A program made the position numbers and the translations under genes. From Candidatus Hermodarchaeota archaeon (lineage in GTDB: Archaea > Asgardarchaeota > Heimdallarchaeia > Hodarchaeales > Hodarchaeaceae), in NCBI GenBank assembly GCA_048886185.1, contig JBHLKY010000049.1:1-9633 (forward strand): a DNA stretch of 9,633 nucleotides, read 5' to 3'. The notes below the pieces were generated by a model. It saw only the letters and a program-made list of their open reading frames with translations. It did not search any database and was not told the origin of the DNA. The stretch's first letter is position 1; each line of letters opens with the position of its first letter. Below, in pieces: positions 222 through 9,633 of the stretch.

Positions 222-595
222 GGCGTCGAAGCAGAAGTCTGACTTGCGGGTTTCTTATGAAACCTGAGGAAATTCCAGCCATTCATGTACGCTGAACAGT
301 GGGATAGTGCCTGATGGTGGCTATTCGCTGTCAACCGAGAGGTTGGGCTCTGTTACAGAAACGACACGCCCCTGTTCTCATGGCTATGATGAAGTGAAGT
401 CACTGGTAACAGTTGACAAGTTAATCTTCTGAGGACGAGCAGGGTATCGATGAAACGAGCATCCTCAGTGAATGCAAGCTGAAATAATGGTTCCTTTGGG
501 GGCCATGGAGTGCAGCGCTTAGGTTGATGTCAGAAACTCTGATGGGGTGACCCTGACGAGCCAACAGAAGCTGGATTACTCTCTGGAGCGACGCC
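222..595 (+). ncRNA. rnpB: RNase P RNA, archaeal type A (~374 nt)
   Basis: All five conserved regions occur in order: CR-I GAGGAAATTCC (266-276), CR-II ACAGAAAC (355-362), CR-III TGAAACG (451-457), CR-IV TTAGGTTGATG (519-529), CR-V ACAGAAGCTGGATTA (564-578). Helices pair: P1 GGCGTCG 222-228/CGACGCC 589-595; P2 TCTGAC 238-243/GTCAGA 529-534; P3 GGTTTC 249-254/GAAACC 259-264; P4 pseudoknot TCCAGC 274-279/GCTGGA 570-575; P5 CATTCA 280-285/TGAATG 469-474; P9 CAACC-GAGA-GGTTG 332-345; long P12; P16 487-506; P19 with GGG-GTGA-CCC 544-553. No P18. Confidence 0.95.
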
Positions 596-602
596 CTCTG
601 CA

Positions 603-609
603 TTTTTTT
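603..609 (+). terminator. Oligo-T terminator of rnpB
   Basis: T7 run starting 8 nt after the P1 3' strand. Confidence 0.55.
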
Positions 610-634
610 ACCGCAAATGTTATCTTAGACCGAG

Positions 635-1174
635 ATGATTTTTTTGCCTTTCCGAAGTTCTCTAACAAGGGAACAGAAAACTCTTCTTGCTTGTCTTGCG
701 ATGTACTGGATATCTTTTCTCCCCCTGTTCGTTCTCACAATCATGGTGGTTTTTCCTCCAAATTTACCTCCAAACCATTTTCCGTTGGCCTTTACAATTG
801 GTATCACAATGAATGCGATCCAGTTTTTTCCTTTCTCTCCACTCATTCTTGCAGTCTTTTTTTCTATCCCAACCGTTGTCAGTTCTCTTTTCGTGAACTA
901 TTCAAACAAGAAACATGCTATCAACTTAAGGATTGTTAGAACAACAGGAATAATCCATTTTACCTTTCTTATTGTAATGTCTTTCGTTCCAGTTCAGTTG
1001 TTAATCGAAATTCTCTTCAATCCATCCCTCAGTCACTACCAATCCCCCGTAAAAGCAGGCACATTTATAATAATTCTCTTTTTCTATTGCCTCTTCGTGG
1101 CCCCTGTCATTTTATTCTCTCTTTTCCTCGCTGCGCTTATCAATAGATGGGACTCACACACTGTCAAATCCTAG
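635..1174 (+). CDS. Hypothetical integral membrane protein (179 aa, ~4-5 TM)
   Basis: Long hydrophobic segments; fills the space between rnpB and fragment A; no recognisable family motif. Confidence 0.75.
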   Translation: MIFLPFRSSLTREQKTLLACLAMYWISFLPLFVLTIMVVFPPNLPPNHFPLAFTIGITMNAIQFFPFSPLILAVFFSIPTVVSSLFVNYSNKKHAINLRIVRTTGIIHFTFLIVMSFVPVQLLIEILFNPSLSHYQSPVKAGTFIIILFFYCLFVAPVILFSLFLAALINRWDSHTVKS

Positions 1175-1213
1175 TCTTTAATTATAAGAGACAAACGGAT
1201 CACTGTCTGAGAA

Positions 1214-1430
1214 ATGGCTATGATGGGGTGATTTCGCTGGTAATAGTCGATGAGTTAATCTCTTGAGGACGAGCAGGGAAACGGTGAAACGAGTATCCTC
1301 AGTGGATGCAAGCTGAAGTAATGGTCTCTTCAAGGGGCCATAGAGTGCAGCGTGTAGATTGGTATCAGAACCTCTGATGGGGTGACCCTGATGAGCTAAC
1401 TGAAGCTGGATTACTCTCTGAAGCTGCTCC
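1214..1430 (+). pseudogene. rnpB: rnpB 3' fragment A (equivalent to rnpB 380-595)
   Basis: Hand alignment gives ~36 differences in 217 columns (~83%). Carries part of P12, CR-III, P15/P16, CR-IV, P19 and CR-V; lacks CR-I and the 5' strands of P1, P2 and P4. Followed by a T-rich tract. Confidence 0.92.
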
Positions 1431-1586
1431 CTCTTTATTTTACTATCATCTTTGTACACATAGATCTGTTATTGTGTGAAAGCTGAAGACCAATGCAAAG
1501 GTTTATGATCTGCTAAAAGGCAGGGAACTTAAATTATTTATAAGTTCAAGAATTTCTTGAAACCATAACGTTCCCAGAACTTTACA

Positions 1587-2579
1587 TTGGTTTATATTAT
1601 GGGTAAACTGAATGAGTATAAAAGCCGATTTGGATGGGATCCAGCCCAAATTACCTATTTAACGGGATTTTTAATCTTTCAGGGAATAATCAATATTCCT
1701 CTTTATTTTTTCTTCTTCATTCCTAACTTTAGTCATTTCACGAATGAGTGGGAAATTTATCATGAAATCCTTCTTGGAAACCAACCTATTTTTTTAACTC
1801 TGTTATTTTTTTGCAGTATAATCCTATTTATACAAATTCTTGGAAGTATAATTTTTGTCCAGAAATGTAAAGCCTTTAAGGAAACTGACCCACATAAAGT
1901 ACAATGGGTCTGGAGTCACCTCATATATTTTGGAATTACTTTATCACTGATGTGTCTTCTTGATTTTATTATCCCTGAATCACGACAGTGGTTCCTCTGG
2001 AGGTGGAGCTGGTTCGTACTCGCAGGTCTAGCATTTTCTGGATTTTTAGCCTCTGTCTCCTTTATTGGCCTTCTGTTTTTTTCACTCTTTGTATTTCTTC
2101 GTGATTATTCAGTAATGCTAATGTCGAGTATCAAAATCATAGAAGATTACTCTTTTAATTATACTATTCTGGGAATGGAGACTATCCTTGTTGGGGATTA
2201 TATTCCTGTAGGCGGAATAAAGATTATGTTAACTATCCTTAGATTATTTAGTCCAATGCTTCTATTTTTTCCAATTATCCTCTTTAAAATTGGTCTAACT
2301 CAGTTAAAGAAACCAGTCTCATCCACAGAGATAGATCAAAAAACTCTTGGCGATAGGGTCAAAAGACATTTTGGTATATATTGTTATTTCCAATTAACTG
2401 TTGCTTATTGGGTTGTTTTTCCTATTTATTTAATGATTCTTTATGTACAAGAATATTCAATGAATAACGAAACAGCAATTACTGTAGGTTATTTATTCTT
2501 TCTCATTATTACTGTATTATGTATTATTCTCCCAATTTTTTTAATAGTCAAAGATCAAAAAATGCCAATCCAAGTGTGA
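1587..2579 (+). CDS. Hypothetical polytopic membrane protein (330 aa, ~8 TM)
   Basis: Long ORF with many hydrophobic helices; TTG start at 1587 or ATG at 1599; stops 19 nt before fragment B. Confidence 0.85.
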   Translation: MVYIMGKLNEYKSRFGWDPAQITYLTGFLIFQGIINIPLYFFFFIPNFSHFTNEWEIYHEILLGNQPIFLTLLFFCSIILFIQILGSIIFVQKCKAFKETDPHKVQWVWSHLIYFGITLSLMCLLDFIIPESRQWFLWRWSWFVLAGLAFSGFLASVSFIGLLFFSLFVFLRDYSVMLMSSIKIIEDYSFNYTILGMETILVGDYIPVGGIKIMLTILRLFSPMLLFFPIILFKIGLTQLKKPVSSTEIDQKTLGDRVKRHFGIYCYFQLTVAYWVVFPIYLMILYVQEYSMNNETAITVGYLFFLIITVLCIILPIFLIVKDQKMPIQV

Positions 2580-2598
2580 TAATAGCTTGTTATGTACT

Positions 2599-2734
2599 CA
2601 TCCTCACTGAATGCAAGCTGAAGTAATGGTCTCTTTGGAGGCCATGGAGCGCAGTCCTTAGGTTGATGTTAGAACCTCCGATAGGGTGTCCCTGACAAGC
2701 CAACAGAAGCCAGATTACTCTCTGGAGTAGCGCC
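2599..2734 (+). pseudogene. rnpB: rnpB 3' fragment B (equivalent to rnpB 460-595)
   Basis: Ungapped hand alignment gives 19 differences in 136 nt (~86%). CR-IV and ACAGAAG retained; followed by TTTCTTTT. Confidence 0.92.
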
Positions 2735-2812
2735 TTTCTTTTCATTAACAGTAACAACCTGTATTGTGTTCACGAAATCAACAAAGACAAACTTAAAACA
2801 TCTAACTATATT

Positions 2813-2858
2813 TGTAGTATTGTAGTCAATATTATATCTATGTAGTAAGATATATAAG
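2813..2858 (+). promoter_or_regulatory. Putative toxin-antitoxin promoter with TATA box and three TGTAGT repeats
   Basis: TATATAAG at 2851-2858, about 30 nt before ATG 2889; TGTAGT at 2813, 2821 and 2841. Confidence 0.45.
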
Positions 2859-2888
2859 TAACAATTTCAGTGGTAAATCTGAGCTAAT

Positions 2889-3161
2889 ATGGGATCCACA
2901 ACCCGAAGGGTATCAGAGGCAGAGCTTCATAAGTTGAAAGAAATTCAAAACCATCTCAAACAGATTGGAATTGATATTAGTCAAGTAGAACTGAGCGAAT
3001 CCATCACCAATTATGTATTAGAACGTTTTGATGATTTTATTAAGGAATATCGTGCCAGAACTCATGACAACAAGCAAGATGCTCTATTAAATTGGATAAA
3101 CAGTCCTTTTAATGGTGAAGAACCAACTGATGCTGTTAAGGAACATGATGTGACTCACTAA
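2889..3161 (+). CDS. Putative antitoxin (VapB role), 90 aa
   Basis: Small charged protein with an acidic C-terminal region; its stop overlaps the PIN gene start (TAATG). Function inferred from position only. Confidence 0.7.
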   Translation: MGSTTRRVSEAELHKLKEIQNHLKQIGIDISQVELSESITNYVLERFDDFIKEYRARTHDNKQDALLNWINSPFNGEEPTDAVKEHDVTH

Positions 3162-3556
3162 TGTTCATAGATAGCGTTGTATGGATTGCACTCAAATATA
3201 AACGCGATCAATGGCATCAAGAAGCTGTCAAGCTAAAGAATAGAATTTTAATATTAGAAAAAATTCATGTGACCGATTTTATTATTGTAGAGACGTACAA
3301 TTTCTTATCAAGGAAAGTTTCATGGATGGCTGCCCAAGAAACGCTTGGGATGTTCCTTGAAAGTCAAAAGGTCGTGATTTTATACAACAATTTTCTTACT
3401 CTAACACATTCGAAGAAAATTTTAGAAAAATATAATCATCTTAGTCTAACAGACGCAAATCTTGTGTGGTTTTCAGAAAATTTAAACATTAACGAAATTT
3501 TAAGCTTCGATAAGGGCTTTGATAACGTGTCTGGTATTAAAAGAATATCTAGCTGA
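3161..3556 (+). CDS. vapC: PIN-domain ribonuclease toxin, VapC family
   Basis: N-terminal FIDS, central IIVETYNFL, and C-terminal LSLTDA...ILSFDKGFD supply the conserved acidic PIN residues; 131 aa. Confidence 0.92.
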   Translation: MFIDSVVWIALKYKRDQWHQEAVKLKNRILILEKIHVTDFIIVETYNFLSRKVSWMAAQETLGMFLESQKVVILYNNFLTLTHSKKILEKYNHLSLTDANLVWFSENLNINEILSFDKGFDNVSGIKRISS

Positions 3557-3601
3557 ATTCTAGCTGAAATTATGCTTTTTTTCTCTTGGAGATTGCAGCA
3601 A

Positions 3602-3703
3602 TCACTTCTTCTTTTTTATTAAAATTCCAATAAATCCTAAAAATACGACAATTACCGAAAATCCTGGAGATACGTTTAATGAAACACCACCGAGAGTAAC
3701 TTC
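3602..3703 (-). pseudogene. Remnant C-terminus of a surface-anchored protein (PGF-TM-basic tail)
   Basis: Minus-strand translation EVTLGGVSLNVSPGFSVIVVFLGFIGILIKKKK*; in-frame stops upstream at 3704-3706 and 3779-3781. Confidence 0.6.
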
Positions 3704-3731
3704 CTAGGTTTCAAGTGAGGAATTTAGAAAG

Positions 3732-3969
3732 ATGCAAAATATGGCTTCAGAATATGACTTTCCGACGGGAAATACTATTTACACAAGAATGATGACAACT
3801 ACTAAAAGAATAGGTAAGACAACCTGTTCCCTCTCCTCTACGATGGCAACTACTAGTCCCTCTCTAATCCAACGAGACACCGATTTAATACCAGGGGCCC
3901 CAATTCATTGGTCTCTTGTCGATTCTAGCGTTCATTGGGGTATTTATTGTGAAAATGAAAAGGAGATAG
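3732..3969 (+). pseudogene. Frameshifted remnant: Ser/Thr-rich linker plus TM-basic tail
   Basis: The 3732 ORF reads TTTKRIGKTTCSLSSTMATTSPSL...DLIPG. A +1 shift at GGGGCCCC (3894-3901) continues as QFIGLLSILAFIGVFIVKMKRR* (stop 3967-3969). Confidence 0.55.
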
Positions 3970-4182
3970 TGAAGAATTATTCAGATTCTTTGGAATGGAG
4001 TTCTCGTAGCTTTTATTTTAGCTATAAAAAGTGTTATCAGATCCTCATATTGCAGTTTCTTGTTAATTTTCGGTATCATCTTGATAATTGCATTAGAAAC
4101 GGTGATCGCGGTGAGTATTGATATTTCATAAATCTATAATGAATTCTTTCCCTAGTATGACACAAACAAACCAATCAAGATC

Positions 4183-4270
4183 TGCAAACTGATTTAATGG
4201 CCTCTTTGAGGGGCCATGGAGAGCAGCGCTTAGGTTGATGTCAGAAACTCTGCTGGAGTGATCCTAACGA
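4183..4270 (+). pseudogene. rnpB: rnpB fragment C, left part (equivalent to rnpB 473-559)
   Basis: About 12 differences in 88 columns (~86%); homology stops abruptly after CTAACGA. Confidence 0.9.
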
Positions 4271-4444
4271 TATGTGTAGTATAAAGAGATGTTGTTCATA
4301 GAATAGAACCCCAAGAGGGACTCACACCATGCACAGACGGCGTAAACGGGATATCAGATCATATGGATGATCCAAGGGCGAAGATATCTGGCATAGGTGA
4401 TCGACAGGGAGCACATCTTGTTAAGATGAGTCTCACATCTAGGT

Positions 4445-4930
4445 TCATGCTGTTGAAATATTATCTGTCTTTAGCCGAATTAAGTAGAAAATGGTGGGTA
4501 TTAATACGATCCACCCAACGATGATTCCAACGGCAATATGAGCGGGGGGATTTCGAGCGACGAGTATATTTGTTACAAAACCTAATATAAAAGCAAATAA
4601 TCCCAATCCCGCTCCTATGAGGTCATTTTTTTTAATTATAATGGCTGCAGCAAAACTTATAATCCCTACACATAAACTTAACACTCCCCACCATGAGAAA
4701 TTGATCGTCCAGTGTTCGAGATGATCGGTGATATAATTTAGATAACCTGGAGCAGATAGCTGGACAACTAAAGATAACCACCAACCCATGAATCCTACTA
4801 GACCTATGATTCCATAGACTAGAAACTGAAAGACGACCAGATTAAGGAGCGGATCACTTCTAACAAAACCAAATAGGTGTTGGCATTTTTGATACAACTT
4901 ATTAGTCCATCTAGGAGTGGAATCAGGCAT
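4445..4930 (-). CDS. Hypothetical membrane protein (161 aa, ~4 TM)
   Basis: Hydrophobic helices; GAGGAGA Shine-Dalgarno-like motif 5 nt upstream of the ATG on the minus strand. Confidence 0.8.
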   Translation of the reverse strand: MPDSTPRWTNKLYQKCQHLFGFVRSDPLLNLVVFQFLVYGIIGLVGFMGWWLSLVVQLSAPGYLNYITDHLEHWTINFSWWGVLSLCVGIISFAAAIIIKKNDLIGAGLGLFAFILGFVTNILVARNPPAHIAVGIIVGWIVLIPTIFYLIRLKTDNISTA

Positions 4931-5175
4931 TTCAGTCTCCTCTGATTACTGTGACGTATCTTAATAAGTGAATCATATAATAATCAAAACTATACCGTAA
5001 TTCTTCATTAAATAATTTATTTGTTTCTACATAAATTGATTCTGTTTTCTGTTTCAAATCCTTTCTTCTTATCTTACCTATAATTTCTATTTGATCTTCT
5101 TTTTTAGCATATCAGGTCTTGGTATTTCTGTAACAAATTACAAAGGAAACTACTTTCTTCACAACCTTAATGGAT

Positions 5176-5209
5176 CAACAGAAGTTGAATTACTCTCTGG
5201 AGCGATGGC
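5176..5209 (+). pseudogene. rnpB: rnpB fragment C, right part (equivalent to rnpB 562-595)
   Basis: CAACAGAAGTTGAATTACTCTCTGGAGCGATGGC matches the rnpB 3' end at 30 of 34 positions. Confidence 0.85.
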
Positions 5210-5483
5210 CACTTCTTCCTTTATAACACAATTCTTAATTTCTTTACAGTCTTGTTAATGTTGTTAAGATGTAAAAGAGCTGAGAAAAAAATAATGGATA
5301 TCAAAACAGAAATAGGAATCCAGCTCAGATTGCGTTTTTAGTAAAAGAGACTACAATTAATTTTAAGATGGCATCCTTCTTAAGCTTTTAAAGGTCTATG
5401 AAAATACATAACCTGTCAATGAGGGTCAGTTACTTTAGGTAATTAATATTCAGTATTTTGACTCATTTTCCAGGGTCGATGCA

Positions 5484-6515
5484 ATGAATTATTCATTGGA
5501 GTGTGCAATCTGGGAAACCACCTTAAAATGCAATTTACGTTGTTCTCATTGTGGATCGTCTGCAGGTCAAGCTCGGAGCGATGAACTTACCACTGAGGAA
5601 TGTTTTTCGTTATGTGAACAATTAGCTCAGTTAGAGTGTAATAATATAGCTTTAATGGGAGGAGAAGTTTTTTTACGAAAAGATTGGTATGAAATTGCCA
5701 GTTGCATAAAAGATCTCGGCATAGAATTGAGTATTGTTTCTAACGGGTTTGTTCTTGATAAATACATCAATGAGGTAGCTCAATTAAAACCAACTGTAGT
5801 TGGTATCAGTCTTGATGGCTTACGAACGACTCATGACCTCATTCGTGGTGTAAAAGGAGCTTTCACCAACGCAATTGAAGCAATTAATCTTCTCAGAAGG
5901 AATCAAATCCATGTCACTATCATCACCGCAGTTAGTAAAATTAATTTCAATGAACTTCCCAAACTAAAAGCTCTCATTTATAATAAAGGTGTTAACTGGC
6001 AAATTCAATTAGCAACGCCTTTTGGTCAATTCACGAAAGATCAAATGCTTTCTTATGAAGAATTTTATGCAGTAGGGTTATTCATTGCTGCATTAAGAGC
6101 TAAACATCACTTCCAAAACATGCCCGTTGTTGGAGCCCATTGTATGGGATATCATTCCAGTATAATGCCAAATTTTCTTTGGAATGGGTGTACTGCTGGA
6201 ATCAGTTCAATTGGGATCACAAGTAACGGTGGAATCGTTGGTTGTTTAGCCATGGGAAATAATCGCTTCATTGAAGGCAATATCCGAGAGCAATCATTGA
6301 CATCGATTTGGTACAGTAGAAACAAGTTCCTTTACAACAGACATTTTTCGAATGATCAAATCGGATCATACTGTCTTCACTGCCATCATAACTTGACTTG
6401 TAAAGGAGGTTGTAACTCCGTTTCCTATGCACTGATGGAACAATTCCATAATGATCCCTACTGTTTTCATCGTATAGAAACAGATATTATCCAAAATCAG
6501 GTTAGTGAGGATTAA
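5484..6515 (+). CDS. Radical SAM protein with C-terminal SPASM domain
   Basis: CNLRCSHC (CxxxCxxC), MGGE motif, SLDG, then SPASM-type cysteines: CTAG...GC...CLHC...CKGGC...C. Confidence 0.93.
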   Translation: MNYSLECAIWETTLKCNLRCSHCGSSAGQARSDELTTEECFSLCEQLAQLECNNIALMGGEVFLRKDWYEIASCIKDLGIELSIVSNGFVLDKYINEVAQLKPTVVGISLDGLRTTHDLIRGVKGAFTNAIEAINLLRRNQIHVTIITAVSKINFNELPKLKALIYNKGVNWQIQLATPFGQFTKDQMLSYEEFYAVGLFIAALRAKHHFQNMPVVGAHCMGYHSSIMPNFLWNGCTAGISSIGITSNGGIVGCLAMGNNRFIEGNIREQSLTSIWYSRNKFLYNRHFSNDQIGSYCLHCHHNLTCKGGCNSVSYALMEQFHNDPYCFHRIETDIIQNQVSED

Positions 6516-6523
6516 TTTAAATT

Positions 6524-7834
6524 ATGACTGATACTGTAAAAGGATCAGAAATTTCTCTTAATCTTGGCTGCGGATCAAATTACCGTATTGGTTTTTTGAA
6601 TGTAGATCTATTTGATTTAACTGCTGCAGATTTTGGTGCTCATGCTGCTTTTTTACCTTTCAAATCAAATATTGTTGGGAGGATAGAAACATATCACTTA
6701 CTTGAACATTTTGACTGGGTGGAAGTCAAGTATCTGTTGAATGAGTGGTTCAGAGTATTAGAAGGAGGTGGGAGTCTGATTATTGAAGTACCTGATTTAA
6801 AGGCTTCAGCTAGAAAGCTCTCACATTTAAAGGACTTATCATCTCAAACAGCAACCTTGCAATGGATTTTTGGTGTAGAGAACTCCGGAATGCGGCATAA
6901 AACGGGTTTCACGAGAGAAATTTTGTTAAACTTCTTGTTGAAGGCGGGATTCGTCGAGATCAAGAAAGAAACTCCTCAAAGTCATCAATATGAGAAAGGA
7001 TTACGAATTACATGTAAAAAACCTCTTCACAATAAAAGTCAGGACTTAACTCTCATTCATGCTTTTAGAACAAATATTACTCCAATTATATTTTCTGGAC
7101 AGGTGAAAAACATTCACCTTTTGGAAAAAAATCATATTGAAATTATAGAGCCCCTATTAGATAAAAAAAAGAAAATAAATATGCTTAACAATTACATTCA
7201 TGCCCTTGCCAGACTGGCTATATGTAATCCATTATTAGCAGAAATATTACTGCAAATAATAACTAAAAATAACCACATTTTAGATAAATACCAAATTAGA
7301 ATGAATAAAGCCATAAAATTTTTACAGGAGATCAATTTTCATCAAAAAATATTCACCTTATGGATTAAGCGTAAAAAAACACCTGGAGAATCAGAAAAAG
7401 ATTATTTGGCTTTCATTGCTAATCTAGAATCTAAGCTTTACCAATCATTTATCACTGACTCTGATTTAAGAAAGGATTTTTCCTATATTTCTACCTTGAT
7501 TTCTGAACCTATCCATTTTCTTGACTTTTTCTTCATCCTGCATAAGGCTACTACTTGTTTTAATCAGGGTCTTCGAAAGTTCTTTTTAAAACGGTATGAA
7601 GAAGCTAAAGACCTGTTTAGTATGTCTTCAAGATTAATTTCTGATAACCATGTTATCTATTGGAATTTAGGCCGTTTAGGAGCATTGACCGATGAGCCCA
7701 AAACCTCCTACTTCTATCAAACCGCTTTAACTTTATCTCCTAGTAAAGCTGACAAAGAAGAAATACTAAAAGAACTTCAAGGAGTAAGAGACAATGCACA
7801 GAGATCTGTAATAGATATGCCTGTTCTTCGATGA
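6524..7834 (+). CDS. Class I SAM-dependent methyltransferase domain fused to a helical/TPR-like C-terminus
   Basis: LNLGCG motif I, LNVD and HLLEHF in the first ~165 aa; C-terminal GLRKFFLKRYEEAKDLF...YWNLG...YQTALTLSP resembles TPR repeats; 8 nt downstream of the radical SAM gene. Confidence 0.8.
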   Translation: MTDTVKGSEISLNLGCGSNYRIGFLNVDLFDLTAADFGAHAAFLPFKSNIVGRIETYHLLEHFDWVEVKYLLNEWFRVLEGGGSLIIEVPDLKASARKLSHLKDLSSQTATLQWIFGVENSGMRHKTGFTREILLNFLLKAGFVEIKKETPQSHQYEKGLRITCKKPLHNKSQDLTLIHAFRTNITPIIFSGQVKNIHLLEKNHIEIIEPLLDKKKKINMLNNYIHALARLAICNPLLAEILLQIITKNNHILDKYQIRMNKAIKFLQEINFHQKIFTLWIKRKKTPGESEKDYLAFIANLESKLYQSFITDSDLRKDFSYISTLISEPIHFLDFFFILHKATTCFNQGLRKFFLKRYEEAKDLFSMSSRLISDNHVIYWNLGRLGALTDEPKTSYFYQTALTLSPSKADKEEILKELQGVRDNAQRSVIDMPVLR

Positions 7835-7904
7835 AAGAGTAACATCTACAAACCTTATCCCCTTAAATTTAGCATCTTGTTTAGGGATATGAGTAAACGA
7901 TATA

Positions 7905-8336
7905 CTAATGTGAGTGAGCTGTTTCATTGGTATAAACACCATACATGGGAGAAACGTTGGTTGTTTTCATTGCCATACCAGCTGTATATCCACTAAATAT
8001 CCCAATAAGTAAAATAACCATTGAGATAAAACCAATCAGAAAAATTGACTTTTTTTTCTTAATTAGAGGATTATTGGGTATAATACCTATTATGATATAA
8101 GGAGTAAGAAATGGATATCCATTAACTACTCTATAATGAGTGGGAGCTAGGTGATAGCCATAGAGGAAAGATAAAACGCCAAGTATCGATTCAAAAATGG
8201 CGACAATTCCGTATTGAAATTTATATTTCTTTTTTGACCGAGAAACCATTTCAAGCTCGGCTGGGGTGAGGTTAAGTTGGTTTGCTAGTGTTTCAAGCTT
8301 TTTTCTTGATGGTTCCATGAATATTCTTGAGTTCAT
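7905..8336 (-). CDS. Hypothetical small membrane protein (~143 aa)
   Basis: Charged helical N-terminus followed by 2-3 hydrophobic segments; TATA box 20 nt upstream. Confidence 0.7.
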   Translation of the reverse strand: MNSRIFMEPSRKKLETLANQLNLTPAELEMVSRSKKKYKFQYGIVAIFESILGVLSFLYGYHLAPTHYRVVNGYPFLTPYIIIGIIPNNPLIKKKKSIFLIGFISMVILLIGIFSGYTAGMAMKTTNVSPMYGVYTNETAHSH

Positions 8337-8355
8337 AGGAAGTGAATCTTAAAAA

Positions 8356-8363
8356 TATTTATA
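8356..8363 (-). promoter_or_regulatory. TATA box for the 7905-8336 gene
   Basis: TATAAATA on the minus strand 20 nt upstream of the ATG, consistent with a near-leaderless transcript. Confidence 0.45.
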
Positions 8364-8460
8364 GGTCAAAGAATACACAATAATGTATATTAGAGTCTTT
8401 TAGATCTTGATTTTGTTTAGGATTTCATTTGATAATTGTATGTTTATTGGTGGAAATTTT

Positions 8461-8889
8461 TTGAATAAGAAGAAGATAAATGAAATAGGAGAAAAGCTTC
8501 AAGTTTCGGTATCAACCATCGAGCAAGGTGAGAATAAAAGACTTTTAATTAAACCTTTGTATTTTCTTATCCAAATAGCGATCTTTATAGTTTCATCATT
8601 AATTGGTATGACCTTGGTTGTTATTAAAGAACGAGCTACTTATCCAATAGACTTTATATTTAATGCTACTCCAGTACTACTTCTTACACTTTCATTACAT
8701 GCTGGAAATGGGATTTTTACGGTACCAGGCCAAAAAAAATATGGATTGAGTAAAAATATTAGGATAACAGCTGTCTTAGTCAATTTATTAGCTTCATTAA
8801 TTATGATCAAGCTATTTCTGGACACTTCCGCCCCTTTCCCTAGGGGAGTAGCATATTCTGTTTTTAAGAATTCACCCCAATCACTCTGA
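8461..8889 (+). CDS. Hypothetical small membrane protein (~142 aa, ~3 TM)
   Basis: The ORF track starts at 8407, but GGTGG (8449-8453) sits 7 nt before TTG 8461, which is the more likely start. Confidence 0.7.
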   Translation: MNKKKINEIGEKLQVSVSTIEQGENKRLLIKPLYFLIQIAIFIVSSLIGMTLVVIKERATYPIDFIFNATPVLLLTLSLHAGNGIFTVPGQKKYGLSKNIRITAVLVNLLASLIMIKLFLDTSAPFPRGVAYSVFKNSPQSL

Positions 8890-8977
8890 TTTTGACATAT
8901 GTTCGATTGATCTCAAGTTTCATTGATATATGATGTTTATAAGAGAAAATATCGATTAAATTTTTGAGATTACTAAT

Positions 8978-9151
8978 TTAATCCTTGGAGGACGTGGAGA
9001 GAGTGGTGACTTGAGTATCCTCGGTGAATGTAAGCTGATATAATGGTTCCTTCGGGAGGCATGGAGAGCATCGCCTAGGTTGATCTTAGAAACTCCGAAG
9101 GGATGACCCTAACAAGCCAAAAGAAACTCAATTACTCTATGGAATGATGCT
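8978..9151 (+). pseudogene. rnpB: rnpB 3' fragment D (equivalent to rnpB 421-595), most decayed
   Basis: About 39 differences in 175 columns (~78%). CR-III mutated (TGAAAC to TGACTT) and CR-V mutated; P16 capped by a C-UUCG-G tetraloop. Confidence 0.88.
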
Positions 9152-9164
9152 TTCTATCTTGTAA

Positions 9165-9401
9165 ATCAAAATAATATATGTTATAAGGACAGAAGCACCT
9201 CTTCTCCATGTTTTAGGCTGTTTTATTGGCCTTACACTCATGATTCTCGCAACTGTTCTTGAAGGCGTTCAACTATCACTATTAGGATCTAATTTGTTCA
9301 TTTTGACATGGCTAGTGCTTGGGTTATGGGAACTTCTAATATTATTAGTGATTATATTGAAACAATGGAAGATAAAAATGTTTTATTCATCGTTGGGTTA
9401 A
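9165..9401 (+). pseudogene. Possible hydrophobic ORF remnant lacking a canonical start
   Basis: Open frame reading ...HVLGCFIGLTLMILATVLEGVQLSLLGSNLFILTWLVLGLWELLILLVIILKQWKIKMFYSSLG*; first in-frame ATG is at 9240; not in the ORF track. Confidence 0.3.
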
Positions 9402-9633
9402 GACTGGTTTCCTACTTGACTTTACGCATTGGTAAAGGTTAGGTTTCTCAGTGGCCATTTTTAGAAAAAAATTATCAATTTGAGTAATTAACTATTGATT
9501 GCAGGAAAAATTCGAGTGAGAAAAAATATATCCTGAATCTAGTGATAGTTTAATAAGATAACATGTGTTCTTCAGAAACTTGAAGAGCCGAAAGCGCTTT
9601 CTCTGATATATAAACTCTGGTAATATCATGGTG

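Follow-up and report, generated by a model that had tools for sequence, protein, structure and literature searches.

The window analysed here is the whole of a 9,633-nucleotide (nt) contig, C49 (JBHLKY010000049.1), from the genome of an Asgard archaeon of the order Hodarchaeales (Heimdallarchaeia; Candidatus Hermodarchaeota archaeon, GCA_048886185.1; 4.84 Mb, 75 contigs). It carries an intact gene for the RNA of RNase P, rnpB, and behind it diverged copies of the 3' part of the same gene, which separate modules of mutually unrelated cargo genes. We are highly confident that this locus is a real and recurrent cassette site that lacks a recombinase, and that its mobile units consist of cargo plus an rnpB fragment. 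Asgard archaea are the closest known prokaryotic relatives of eukaryotes, and gene flow among them is poorly understood. In the following, G-codes denote comparison genomes, with G000 being the genome of the window, and L134 is a contig of another species (GCA_016840285.1), whose rnpB is 92% identical to that of the window. C49 connects contigs C3 and C36 of G000 via 77-nt overlaps. The boundaries of fragments (380, 460 and so on) are given as window positions in the intact rnpB. The intact gene and its fragments are:

227 to 599, plus strand: rnpB, intact archaeal RNase P RNA gene (Rfam RNaseP_arch, RF00373)
1214 to 1441, plus strand: fragment c1, rnpB 380-606, 83% identity, E 1.5e-64; part of unit M1
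2599 to 2740, plus strand: fragment c2, rnpB 460 to ~600 (BLASTN 2599-2727 to 460-588, 88%, E 1e-41); part of unit M2
4183 to 4270, plus strand: fragment c3a, 5' piece of the split copy 3, rnpB 473-559, 86%, E 8e-24
5176 to 5213, plus strand: fragment c3b, 3' piece of the split copy 3, rnpB 562-599, 87%, E 5e-7
8975 to 9151, plus strand: fragment c4 (BLASTN 8975-9143 to rnpB 418-587, 79%, E 9e-36); part of the radical SAM (rSAM) unit

The RF00373 match of the intact gene (227-590) reached 148 bits against a gathering score of 84, with an E-value of 1.4e-42, and covered model positions 1-288. Full-length rnpB is single copy in G000, as found by an RF00373 search of the genome. The fragments were located by BLASTN of rnpB against the window, and all matches, which are beyond chance (E 5e-7 to 1e-64), lie on the plus strand. 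Fragments c3a and c3b are one copy (rnpB 473-599), because their rnpB spans are complementary, and this copy is interrupted at ~560 by 905 bp. The fragments of G000 have diverged by 13-23% from their own rnpB and from one another, c4 being the most decayed copy of the window. The initial annotation had described an intact rnpB and four same-strand, diverged copies of its 3' part, all reaching the mature 3' end. The RF00373 score and the BLASTN matches bear out the gene, the strand and the divergence of the copies. That the copies reach the 3' end also stands, except for copy 3, which is split by an insert carrying a chromosomal gene. A scattering of copies over the genome, which had been considered too, is not seen: a whole-genome search found rnpB fragments on C49 only.

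The rnpB homology common with the fragments extends to ~599-606 and is followed by a T-rich tract. Each fragment is then followed by a pyrimidine- or T-rich tract of 13-17 nt, whose sequence is different every time. Behind the intact gene, the tract reads ATTTTTTTAC (~609-618), some 20-25 nt ahead of the M1 start codon. It could terminate rnpB and at the same time be the TATA-like element of a leaderless cassette mRNA. A stretch of 29 nt in module M3, starting at the stop codon of a PIN-domain gene (3554-3582), matches rnpB 469-497 at 23 of 29 positions. This may be the last trace of a further fragment, dividing M3 into two units, or may be due to chance.

Could the array be an assembly chimera of several strains' rnpB loci, as the initial annotation had considered? 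The contig ends are 77-nt graph overlaps, and several related species share the same samples, which would make such a chimera conceivable. Nevertheless, we regard its probability as practically negligible. In Logan contigs of three sequencing runs, every junction between cargo and fragment is bridged, each in two to three runs, for example by contigs spanning 494-2637, 1860-3646, 3703-4552, 4696-9058, and 6700-9633 onward; the runs possibly represent the source samples and are not fully independent. Five other metagenome-assembled genomes (MAGs) at NCBI, from the same study, have the M2 gene in the same gene order. The MAG contig L129 aligns to all 9,633 nt at 99.78%, gap-free, and continues into both conserved flanks, and four further MAGs keep the gene order. 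Furthermore, arrays are also present on a 493-kb contig (G008) and in a closed chromosome (G010) of relatives.

Within the genus, fragments also lie downstream of rnpB wherever an assembled rnpB shares at least 91% identity with that of the window. G003 and G012, from which fragments alone and no rnpB were recovered, carry fragments as well. In G008, rnpB is followed by four fragments across 21 kb, and in the chromosome of G010 by a CLC chloride-channel gene and then a 49-nt fragment. Further, different sets of fragments and modules were found in G014, G017, G003, G012, in metagenome contigs, and in L134. Identical module content and order in all relatives, which the initial annotation had weighed as a possibility, is therefore not what we observe; the arrays, which occur in one subclade of the genus, are species-variable. 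In nine more distant species of the genus, the 10-14 kb next to rnpB are free of fragments, and so are the 15 kb downstream of it in 20 genomes that represent other genera and families of the class. A separate observation comes from the single-contig genome G015, in which a 47-nt rnpB 3' fragment lies ~350 kb from rnpB (G015:C1:1101521-1101567, L039).

The two ends of the fragments behave differently. The 3' ends are constant, at ~597-611 with a T-rich tract next to them, and the 5' ends fall at 380, 394, 418/419, 438, 455-473, 505-509, 524/525, and 542-562. This amounts to at least ten distinct 5' ends in the range from 380 to 562, each unit type having its own. The only part of rnpB common to all complete fragments is its last 38-50 nt. 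One repeat of G003 reaches ~60 nt further than the end of rnpB; the segment that is duplicated hence does not depend on a fixed site. A co-oriented open reading frame (ORF) ends 1-484 nt upstream of 19 of 26 fragments, and within 61 nt in 13 of the 19, although these cases are not independent.

The cargo between the fragments of the window is organized in four modules, with an insert (see below) between the third and the fourth:

600 to 1213, plus strand: cargo M1, ORF 635-1174, 179-amino-acid (aa) membrane protein, no Pfam family
1442 to 2598, plus strand: cargo M2, ORF 1587-2579, 330-aa membrane protein (326 aa in MAG records), no Pfam family
2741 to 4182, plus strand: cargo M3, 90-aa putative antitoxin (2889-3161), PIN-domain toxin (3161-3556), 129-aa ORF (3732-4121)
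5214 to 8974, plus strand: rSAM module, radical SAM/SPASM enzyme (5484-6515; PF04055, PF13186) and 436-aa protein (6524-7834)
Small genes of the rSAM module: 143-aa membrane protein (7905-8336, minus strand) and 160-aa membrane protein (8407-8889)

The M1 ORF stops 39 nt ahead of c1, and the M2 ORF 19 nt ahead of c2, just as the initial annotation had stated for the first two modules.

Comparison among relatives indicates that the heritable and movable unit is the cargo gene, or genes, together with the rnpB 3' fragment downstream of them. The rSAM unit has the boundary 418/419 in both G000 and G008, and a unit of a PadR regulator and a 505-aa protein has the boundary 466 in G014 and G012. A 496-aa protein is joined to boundary 505-509 in G003 and two metagenome contigs, and an ABC transporter to boundary 438 in G003 and L134, where the upstream neighbours are different. 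Units have also changed places. The order in the window is rnpB-M1-f380-M2-f460, while in L134 it is rnpB-M2-f458-M1-f380, with M1 and M2 swapped. In L134, the M2 homologue (77% aa identity) is the first module after rnpB, and the same rnpB array also holds the M1 homologue, at 68% aa identity and with one in-frame stop. The cargo-to-fragment junction of M2 is the same in the window and in L134. The junction of M1 reads TGTCTGAGAA|ATGGCT in the window, and after the M1 homologue of L134 it differs by one base, TGTCTGGGAA. L134 also contains a second, truncated M1 tail with its fragment.

The interiors of the fragments, on the other hand, are of host type. All four complete fragments of L134 have the hairpin variant of L134's own rnpB, GGAGATCG, and the fragments of G000 and G008 have the other variant, as in their hosts. 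Nucleotide searches did not find M1 and M2 in 21 other representatives of the genus, therefore their distribution is patchy over both hairpin clades. At two sites, the L134 copies show all four combinations of variants, which indicates that sequence has been exchanged between them. The fragments of G008 and L134 are ~94-97% identical to the rnpB of their host. Either these arrays are younger than that of the window, or they still exchange sequence.

The position of the rSAM module suggests an order of acquisition. This module (86% nt identity) is the first after the intact rnpB in G008 and the last unit in the window, where c4 is the positional orthologue of the G008 fragment f1 (boundary 419). 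In the comparison of the two, homology to the rnpB end, here c3b, runs into the rSAM module, and window positions 5176-5320 (c3b and flank) are colinear with the intact rnpB 3' end and flank of G008. Compared with G008, the window has three to four additional modules between rnpB and the rSAM module. Because the rSAM unit adjoins rnpB in G008 but is last here, M1-M3 and the insert were added in the lineage of the window on the side next to rnpB, with newer units nearest to it. The module variation, the extra modules relative to G008, and the swap of M1 and M2 all support the proposal of the initial annotation that rnpB is a repeatedly used landing site with a cassette-like array, even if the mechanism is inferred.

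The interruption of copy 3 carries an ordinary chromosomal gene. It consists of:

4271 to 5175, minus strand: composite insert of 905 bp, splitting copy 3
4445 to 4930, minus strand: 161-aa membrane-protein gene, conserved and single-copy
4978 to 5157, minus strand: C-terminal third of a 99-aa gene, a remnant ended by c3b

In G010 and G008, the 161-aa gene lies between two conserved genes, distant from the array. The G000 orthologues of those neighbours are adjacent on C13, where an empty site of 90 nt remains (C13:104226-104317), and sequences of relatives reveal a TTCAT microhomology at the ends of the deletion that vacated the native site. The array copy consists of the ORF plus ~30 nt on either side. 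It is nearest to that of G015 (87% nt), a distant member of the genus, and only 78-79% identical to those of closer relatives. This hints that the gene may have been acquired from another lineage, given its higher identity to the distant G015. Intact copies of the 99-aa gene, in G017 (L047:6604-6903) and in metagenome contig L077, immediately follow rnpB or a fragment.

Cargo in general is diverse. The toxin of M3 belongs to the PIN family (PF01850, E 5.7e-11), and its toxin-antitoxin (TA) pair is also found in G018, G005 and G008, at non-syntenic loci without rnpB fragments. Both this pair and the rSAM gene are present in other genomes at unrelated loci that lack rnpB fragments, with homology restricted to the genes themselves. 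Part of the 129-aa ORF of M3 (3822-4009) has a sole nucleotide match in the genus, on the chromosome of G015 (1747387-1747572, 71%), a second hint of cargo from a G015-like lineage. The genes at 5484-8889 may form a peptide- or lipid-modification cluster. The 436-aa protein of the rSAM module has a methyltransferase-like LNLGCG motif and no Pfam match. G008 and G014 keep the module, there with a duplicated 143-aa gene, and a paralogue of this gene lies at G000:C5:182841-183201. The arrays of relatives carry ABC transporters, NosD/beta-helix proteins, a DUF3267 peptidase, a GNAT-thioredoxin protein, a PadR regulator with a 505-aa protein, NadA, an AbiEii-like protein, HTH regulators, a DEAD/MZB helicase, and a flavodiiron-type protein with malate/lactate dehydrogenase. 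Array cargo includes ordinary chromosomal genes, such as nadA, mdh, and the core 161-aa gene with its empty native site.

The initial annotation had seen no recombinase in the window, and this holds more widely: none was found in the arrays or their flanks. Six-frame searches of five genomes with PF00589 and PF16795, reading through stops, gave no match in any array. Pfam scans of ~60 ORFs (~50 from arrays, 10 from flanks) revealed no integrase or other recombinase; serine recombinases were covered by these scans only. The sole transposase found is a DDE transposase ~1.4 kb from a lone fragment in G002. Altogether, ~30 modules across at least nine genomes contain no integrase or integrase fragment. 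The contigs flanking the window encode no tyrosine recombinase, and none lies upstream of rnpB in an intI-like position. Tyrosine recombinases are present in the genomes, never in or beside an array. Extra tyrosine integrases occur in G000, G008, and G010; none turned up in G014, G017, and G003, which bear arrays and are incomplete genomes. Non-Xer tyrosine integrases are patchy over the genus, do not track the presence of arrays, and have no tRNA gene near them.

Free carriers of the rnpB 3' end were not detected either. An exact-pattern scan of IMG/VR for the rnpB 3' core gave no hit for a 24-mer and only chance matches at 16-21 nt, while a diverged attP would be missed by such a pattern. 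A metagenome scan for free elements returned only further chromosomal arrays. By eye, the rnpB 3' core has no convincing 11-6-11 inverted repeat of the dif type.

How do units enter and move? We consider it reasonably probable that the array was built and shuffled, without a dedicated recombinase, by homology-dependent recombination, of unequal or Campbell type, on the homology of the rnpB 3' part. DNA in which cargo is flanked by rnpB-derived sequence would recombine, in unequal register, with the resident rnpB. This could happen through (i) Campbell-type integration of a circle that had formed by loop-out from between two repeats, or (ii) a double crossover of linear DNA, with the left arm in rnpB and the right arm pairing the fragment of the unit with the 3' part of the resident rnpB. 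In either case, rnpB would remain intact, the new cargo would adjoin it, and the resident 3' end would be displaced to become the fragment behind the cargo. Further rounds, and unequal crossovers among the repeats, would add, delete, duplicate, and reorder units. Small deletions would trim the 5' ends of fragments back to the preceding stop codon, and such trimming is suggested by the 13 fragments with the end of a co-oriented ORF within 61 nt. The loop-out of M1 from an order like that of L134, and its re-entry at the intact rnpB, would reproduce the order of the window exactly.

Campbell-type or unequal recombination would thus account for the constant 3' end, the unit-specific 5' boundary that is inherited, the host-type interior, which would be replaced in each round or by conversion, and the insertion beside the intact gene. 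The locus also has the features of an additive, recombinase-free hot spot, namely conserved flanks, variable content, no mobility genes, and mosaic repeats of host type. We infer that the joining agent is general homologous recombination and not an enzyme acting unseen in trans. It is the most economical one in view of the ten or more boundaries, the lack of a cis-encoded recombinase, and the G003 repeat that overshoots the gene end by ~60 nt. The initial annotation had left the choice between an attB-like site and homologous recombination. The latter fits better than a classical att/integrase system, given the lack of a recombinase in the arrays and flanks, the number of 5' boundaries, and the host-type interiors.

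Several observations weigh against this mechanism. The 13-23% divergence of the G000 fragments, and the five conspecific MAGs carrying the same array, point to an array that is old, stable, and not visibly active in this species. No recombination intermediate, nor an excised or rearranged form, was seen in the contigs of four runs, although these are assembled contigs and thus uninformative on absence; similarly, the estuary run X5 has no cover over 2255-5152, which is not readable as absence. Gene conversion that follows a site-specific event in the shared 3' core could also produce host-type interiors. The M2 crossover would need to fall within ~37 nt of the 5' boundary in both lineages, which resembles the fixed crossover of a classical integrase. 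The limitation of arrays to one subclade could mean that a lineage-specific enzyme acts in trans. The split of copy 3, and the cut of two fragments at 554-559, where the shortest fragments start, hint at a preferred breakpoint, and plain homologous recombination predicts none. Lastly, the mechanism does not by itself account for the first cargo-fragment junctions, and some illegitimate joining is needed for each new junction.

Some of these observations would suit a recombinase encoded elsewhere (Xer-like, another tyrosine integrase, or of an unknown type) that acts in trans on the last 38-50 nt of rnpB and inserts and excises integrase-less cassettes, as the integron integrase does, or XerCD on IMEX elements. 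We consider this explanation rather unlikely. It draws on the 3' core being the only part common to all complete fragments, on the start of the shortest fragments at 542-562 and the two cuts at 554-559, which suggest a hot spot of breakpoints, on the confinement of arrays to one lineage, and on the extra tyrosine integrases of three genomes. Yet, a crossover in the core would carry the interior along with the cargo, and the interiors are host-type and the junctions unit-specific. Three other array-bearing genomes, which are incomplete, yielded no such extra integrases. Moreover, the 3' cores of old fragments such as c4 decay like the rest of the fragment, with no visible constraint, and the long repeat of G003 extends beyond the gene. 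We find it improbable that the modules are decayed remnants of self-integrating elements (virus, plasmid, or island), each with its own integrase and an rnpB-3' attP, from which the integrase was later deleted. The architecture resembles tandem tRNA/tmRNA islands, with a direct repeat of the 3' end and newer insertions pushing older ones outward. Different fragment lengths could reflect different classes of integrase, and TA and Abi-like genes are typical of mobile DNA. Against such elements speak the lack of any integrase trace in the modules, even in six frames through stops, the ordinary chromosomal cargo, and single-ORF units of 0.6-1.2 kb, which themselves change position between species. 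In addition, no viral contig of IMG/VR has the exact rnpB 3' motifs, with diverged attP sites being beyond the reach of that scan.

Very little credence is due to the fragments being long target-site duplications, made at each insertion when the repair of staggered breaks captures stray DNA at an rnpB 3' end that is fragile and highly transcribed, or to a variant with one-sided, homology-facilitated illegitimate recombination. The captured chromosomal pieces are indeed gene-sized (an ORF with ~30 nt on each side), the 5' boundaries vary around a constant 3' boundary, no recombinase is present, and microhomology marks the deletion at the native 161-aa site. But the same unit has an identical junction at different positions in two species, which argues that the boundary is inherited with the unit, and 29 other genomes of the class have no rnpB arrays, though their rnpB should be equally transcribed. 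Such duplication may be the origin of new units; as a general mechanism it is contradicted by the shared junctions. A retro-copy, in which 5'-truncated cDNA of RNase P RNA is joined to mRNA, was attractive as stop codons lie 1-40 nt ahead of many fragments. It was rejected, because genes lie on both strands, no reverse transcriptase was seen, and identical junctions combined with host-specific interiors call for recombination of DNA in any case. Duplication of the rnpB region in tandem, with subsequent decay, was also rejected, as the modules are mutually unrelated. Finally, a segment-wise comparison of rnpB with its relatives gave no clear discordance between the 5' and 3' halves, and thus no signal of a donor.

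The flanks of the locus are conserved. Upstream genes encode an MFS transporter, an M20 peptidase, ABCE1, and Tsr3, and downstream there are two CLC channels. In the window, the distal flank is represented by:

9194 to 9633: remnant of a gene for a small membrane protein (9194-9425), then a CLC chloride-channel gene (3' end, minus strand, from ~9550, continuing on C36)

The remnant shows homology to a gene for a 153-aa membrane protein (METRLAPRLH...), of which G017 and G003 have intact copies. With just a 53-aa ORF (9240-9401) left, it looks like a pseudogene, and the position of the 153-aa gene relative to the fragments differs between genomes. Just past the array, contig C36 carries two paralogous CLC genes that are 36% identical (G000:C36:1-4466, L079). 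G008 and G010 have a short rnpB fragment past the first CLC gene, which makes this gene look like a unit in its own right, and the oldest. The upstream side of rnpB, too, varies between species. In G000 (C3:1-3400, L124) it holds the MFS transporter and two small ORFs, and in L134 (1287-4219) three other genes, one with a weak RAMP match. No 5' fragments of rnpB were present in the two upstream regions compared.

If recombination on rnpB homology is indeed the agent, the implications may reach beyond this locus. It is plausible, and we propose it tentatively, that in Hodarchaeales, and perhaps in many other lineages, rnpB fragments act as portable homology arms, so that any gene joined to one becomes a cassette which ordinary homologous recombination could insert beside the rnpB of any relative, and later shuffle or remove. 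The array would then be a recombinase-free analogue of an integron, which also takes up core chromosomal genes. Should host homologous recombination on a carried fragment suffice, this would be a simple and general route of gene gain, missed by island finders that are keyed to integrases and tRNA genes. Each fragment is, in addition, a dated scar in which an old version of the host's rnpB is kept, and from such scars the order and source of acquisitions can be read.

Our literature search turned up no report in which rnpB serves as a site of integration or of cassettes, in agreement with the initial annotation, which knew of no archaeal case, and the work on Asgard mobile elements that was searched does not mention it. 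Genes for tRNA and tmRNA, by comparison, are textbook landing sites for mobile DNA, and Williams reportedly presented a model of islands at their 3' ends in 2002. Tandem islands at tRNA and tmRNA 3' ends include the tycheposon arrays of Prochlorococcus (bioRxiv 10.1101/2020.12.28.424599). The rnpB array resembles these islands in that the 3' end of an essential stable-RNA gene is the target, the gene stays intact, each insertion has a direct 3' repeat, newcomers push older units outward, and the cargo is accessory. It differs in the target itself, in the lack of an element-borne recombinase, or a remnant of one, in any module, and in single-ORF units that move alone. Furthermore, the repeats are 38-228 nt long with at least ten unit-specific boundaries, in contrast to a fixed ~40-nt core with a fixed crossover position.

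Similar repeats have been reported for bacteria. Reed and Altman are said to have described, in 1983, repeats downstream of enterobacterial rnpB that start in the 3' end of the gene. As here, 3'-end sequence is repeated directly downstream, but those repeats are short, tandem, and without cargo genes. The likeness to integrons is of another kind, with an ordered array, cassettes that each end in a recombination element, and new cassettes entering proximally. Small, often single-ORF and mostly co-oriented cassettes, with an order that varies between relatives as in the swap of M1 and M2, may be a further and partial likeness, as some cassettes are multi-gene with genes on both strands. In contrast to integrons, there is no intI-like gene by the platform, and the element is a fragment of a host ribozyme gene rather than a folded attC; the ends of the cassettes run colinear with the rnpB 3' part (an attC model was not applied). 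A further parallel is with integration hot spots without mobile elements, for which Oliveira et al. in 2017 reportedly invoked homology-facilitated recombination between core-gene flanks. Both gain genes at a fixed site between conserved genes, without mobility genes and presumably by host homologous recombination. Unlike in those hot spots, one homology arm is carried in the rnpB array as a repeated partial gene, and therefore insertions would add rather than replace, each leaving a scar that records the event.

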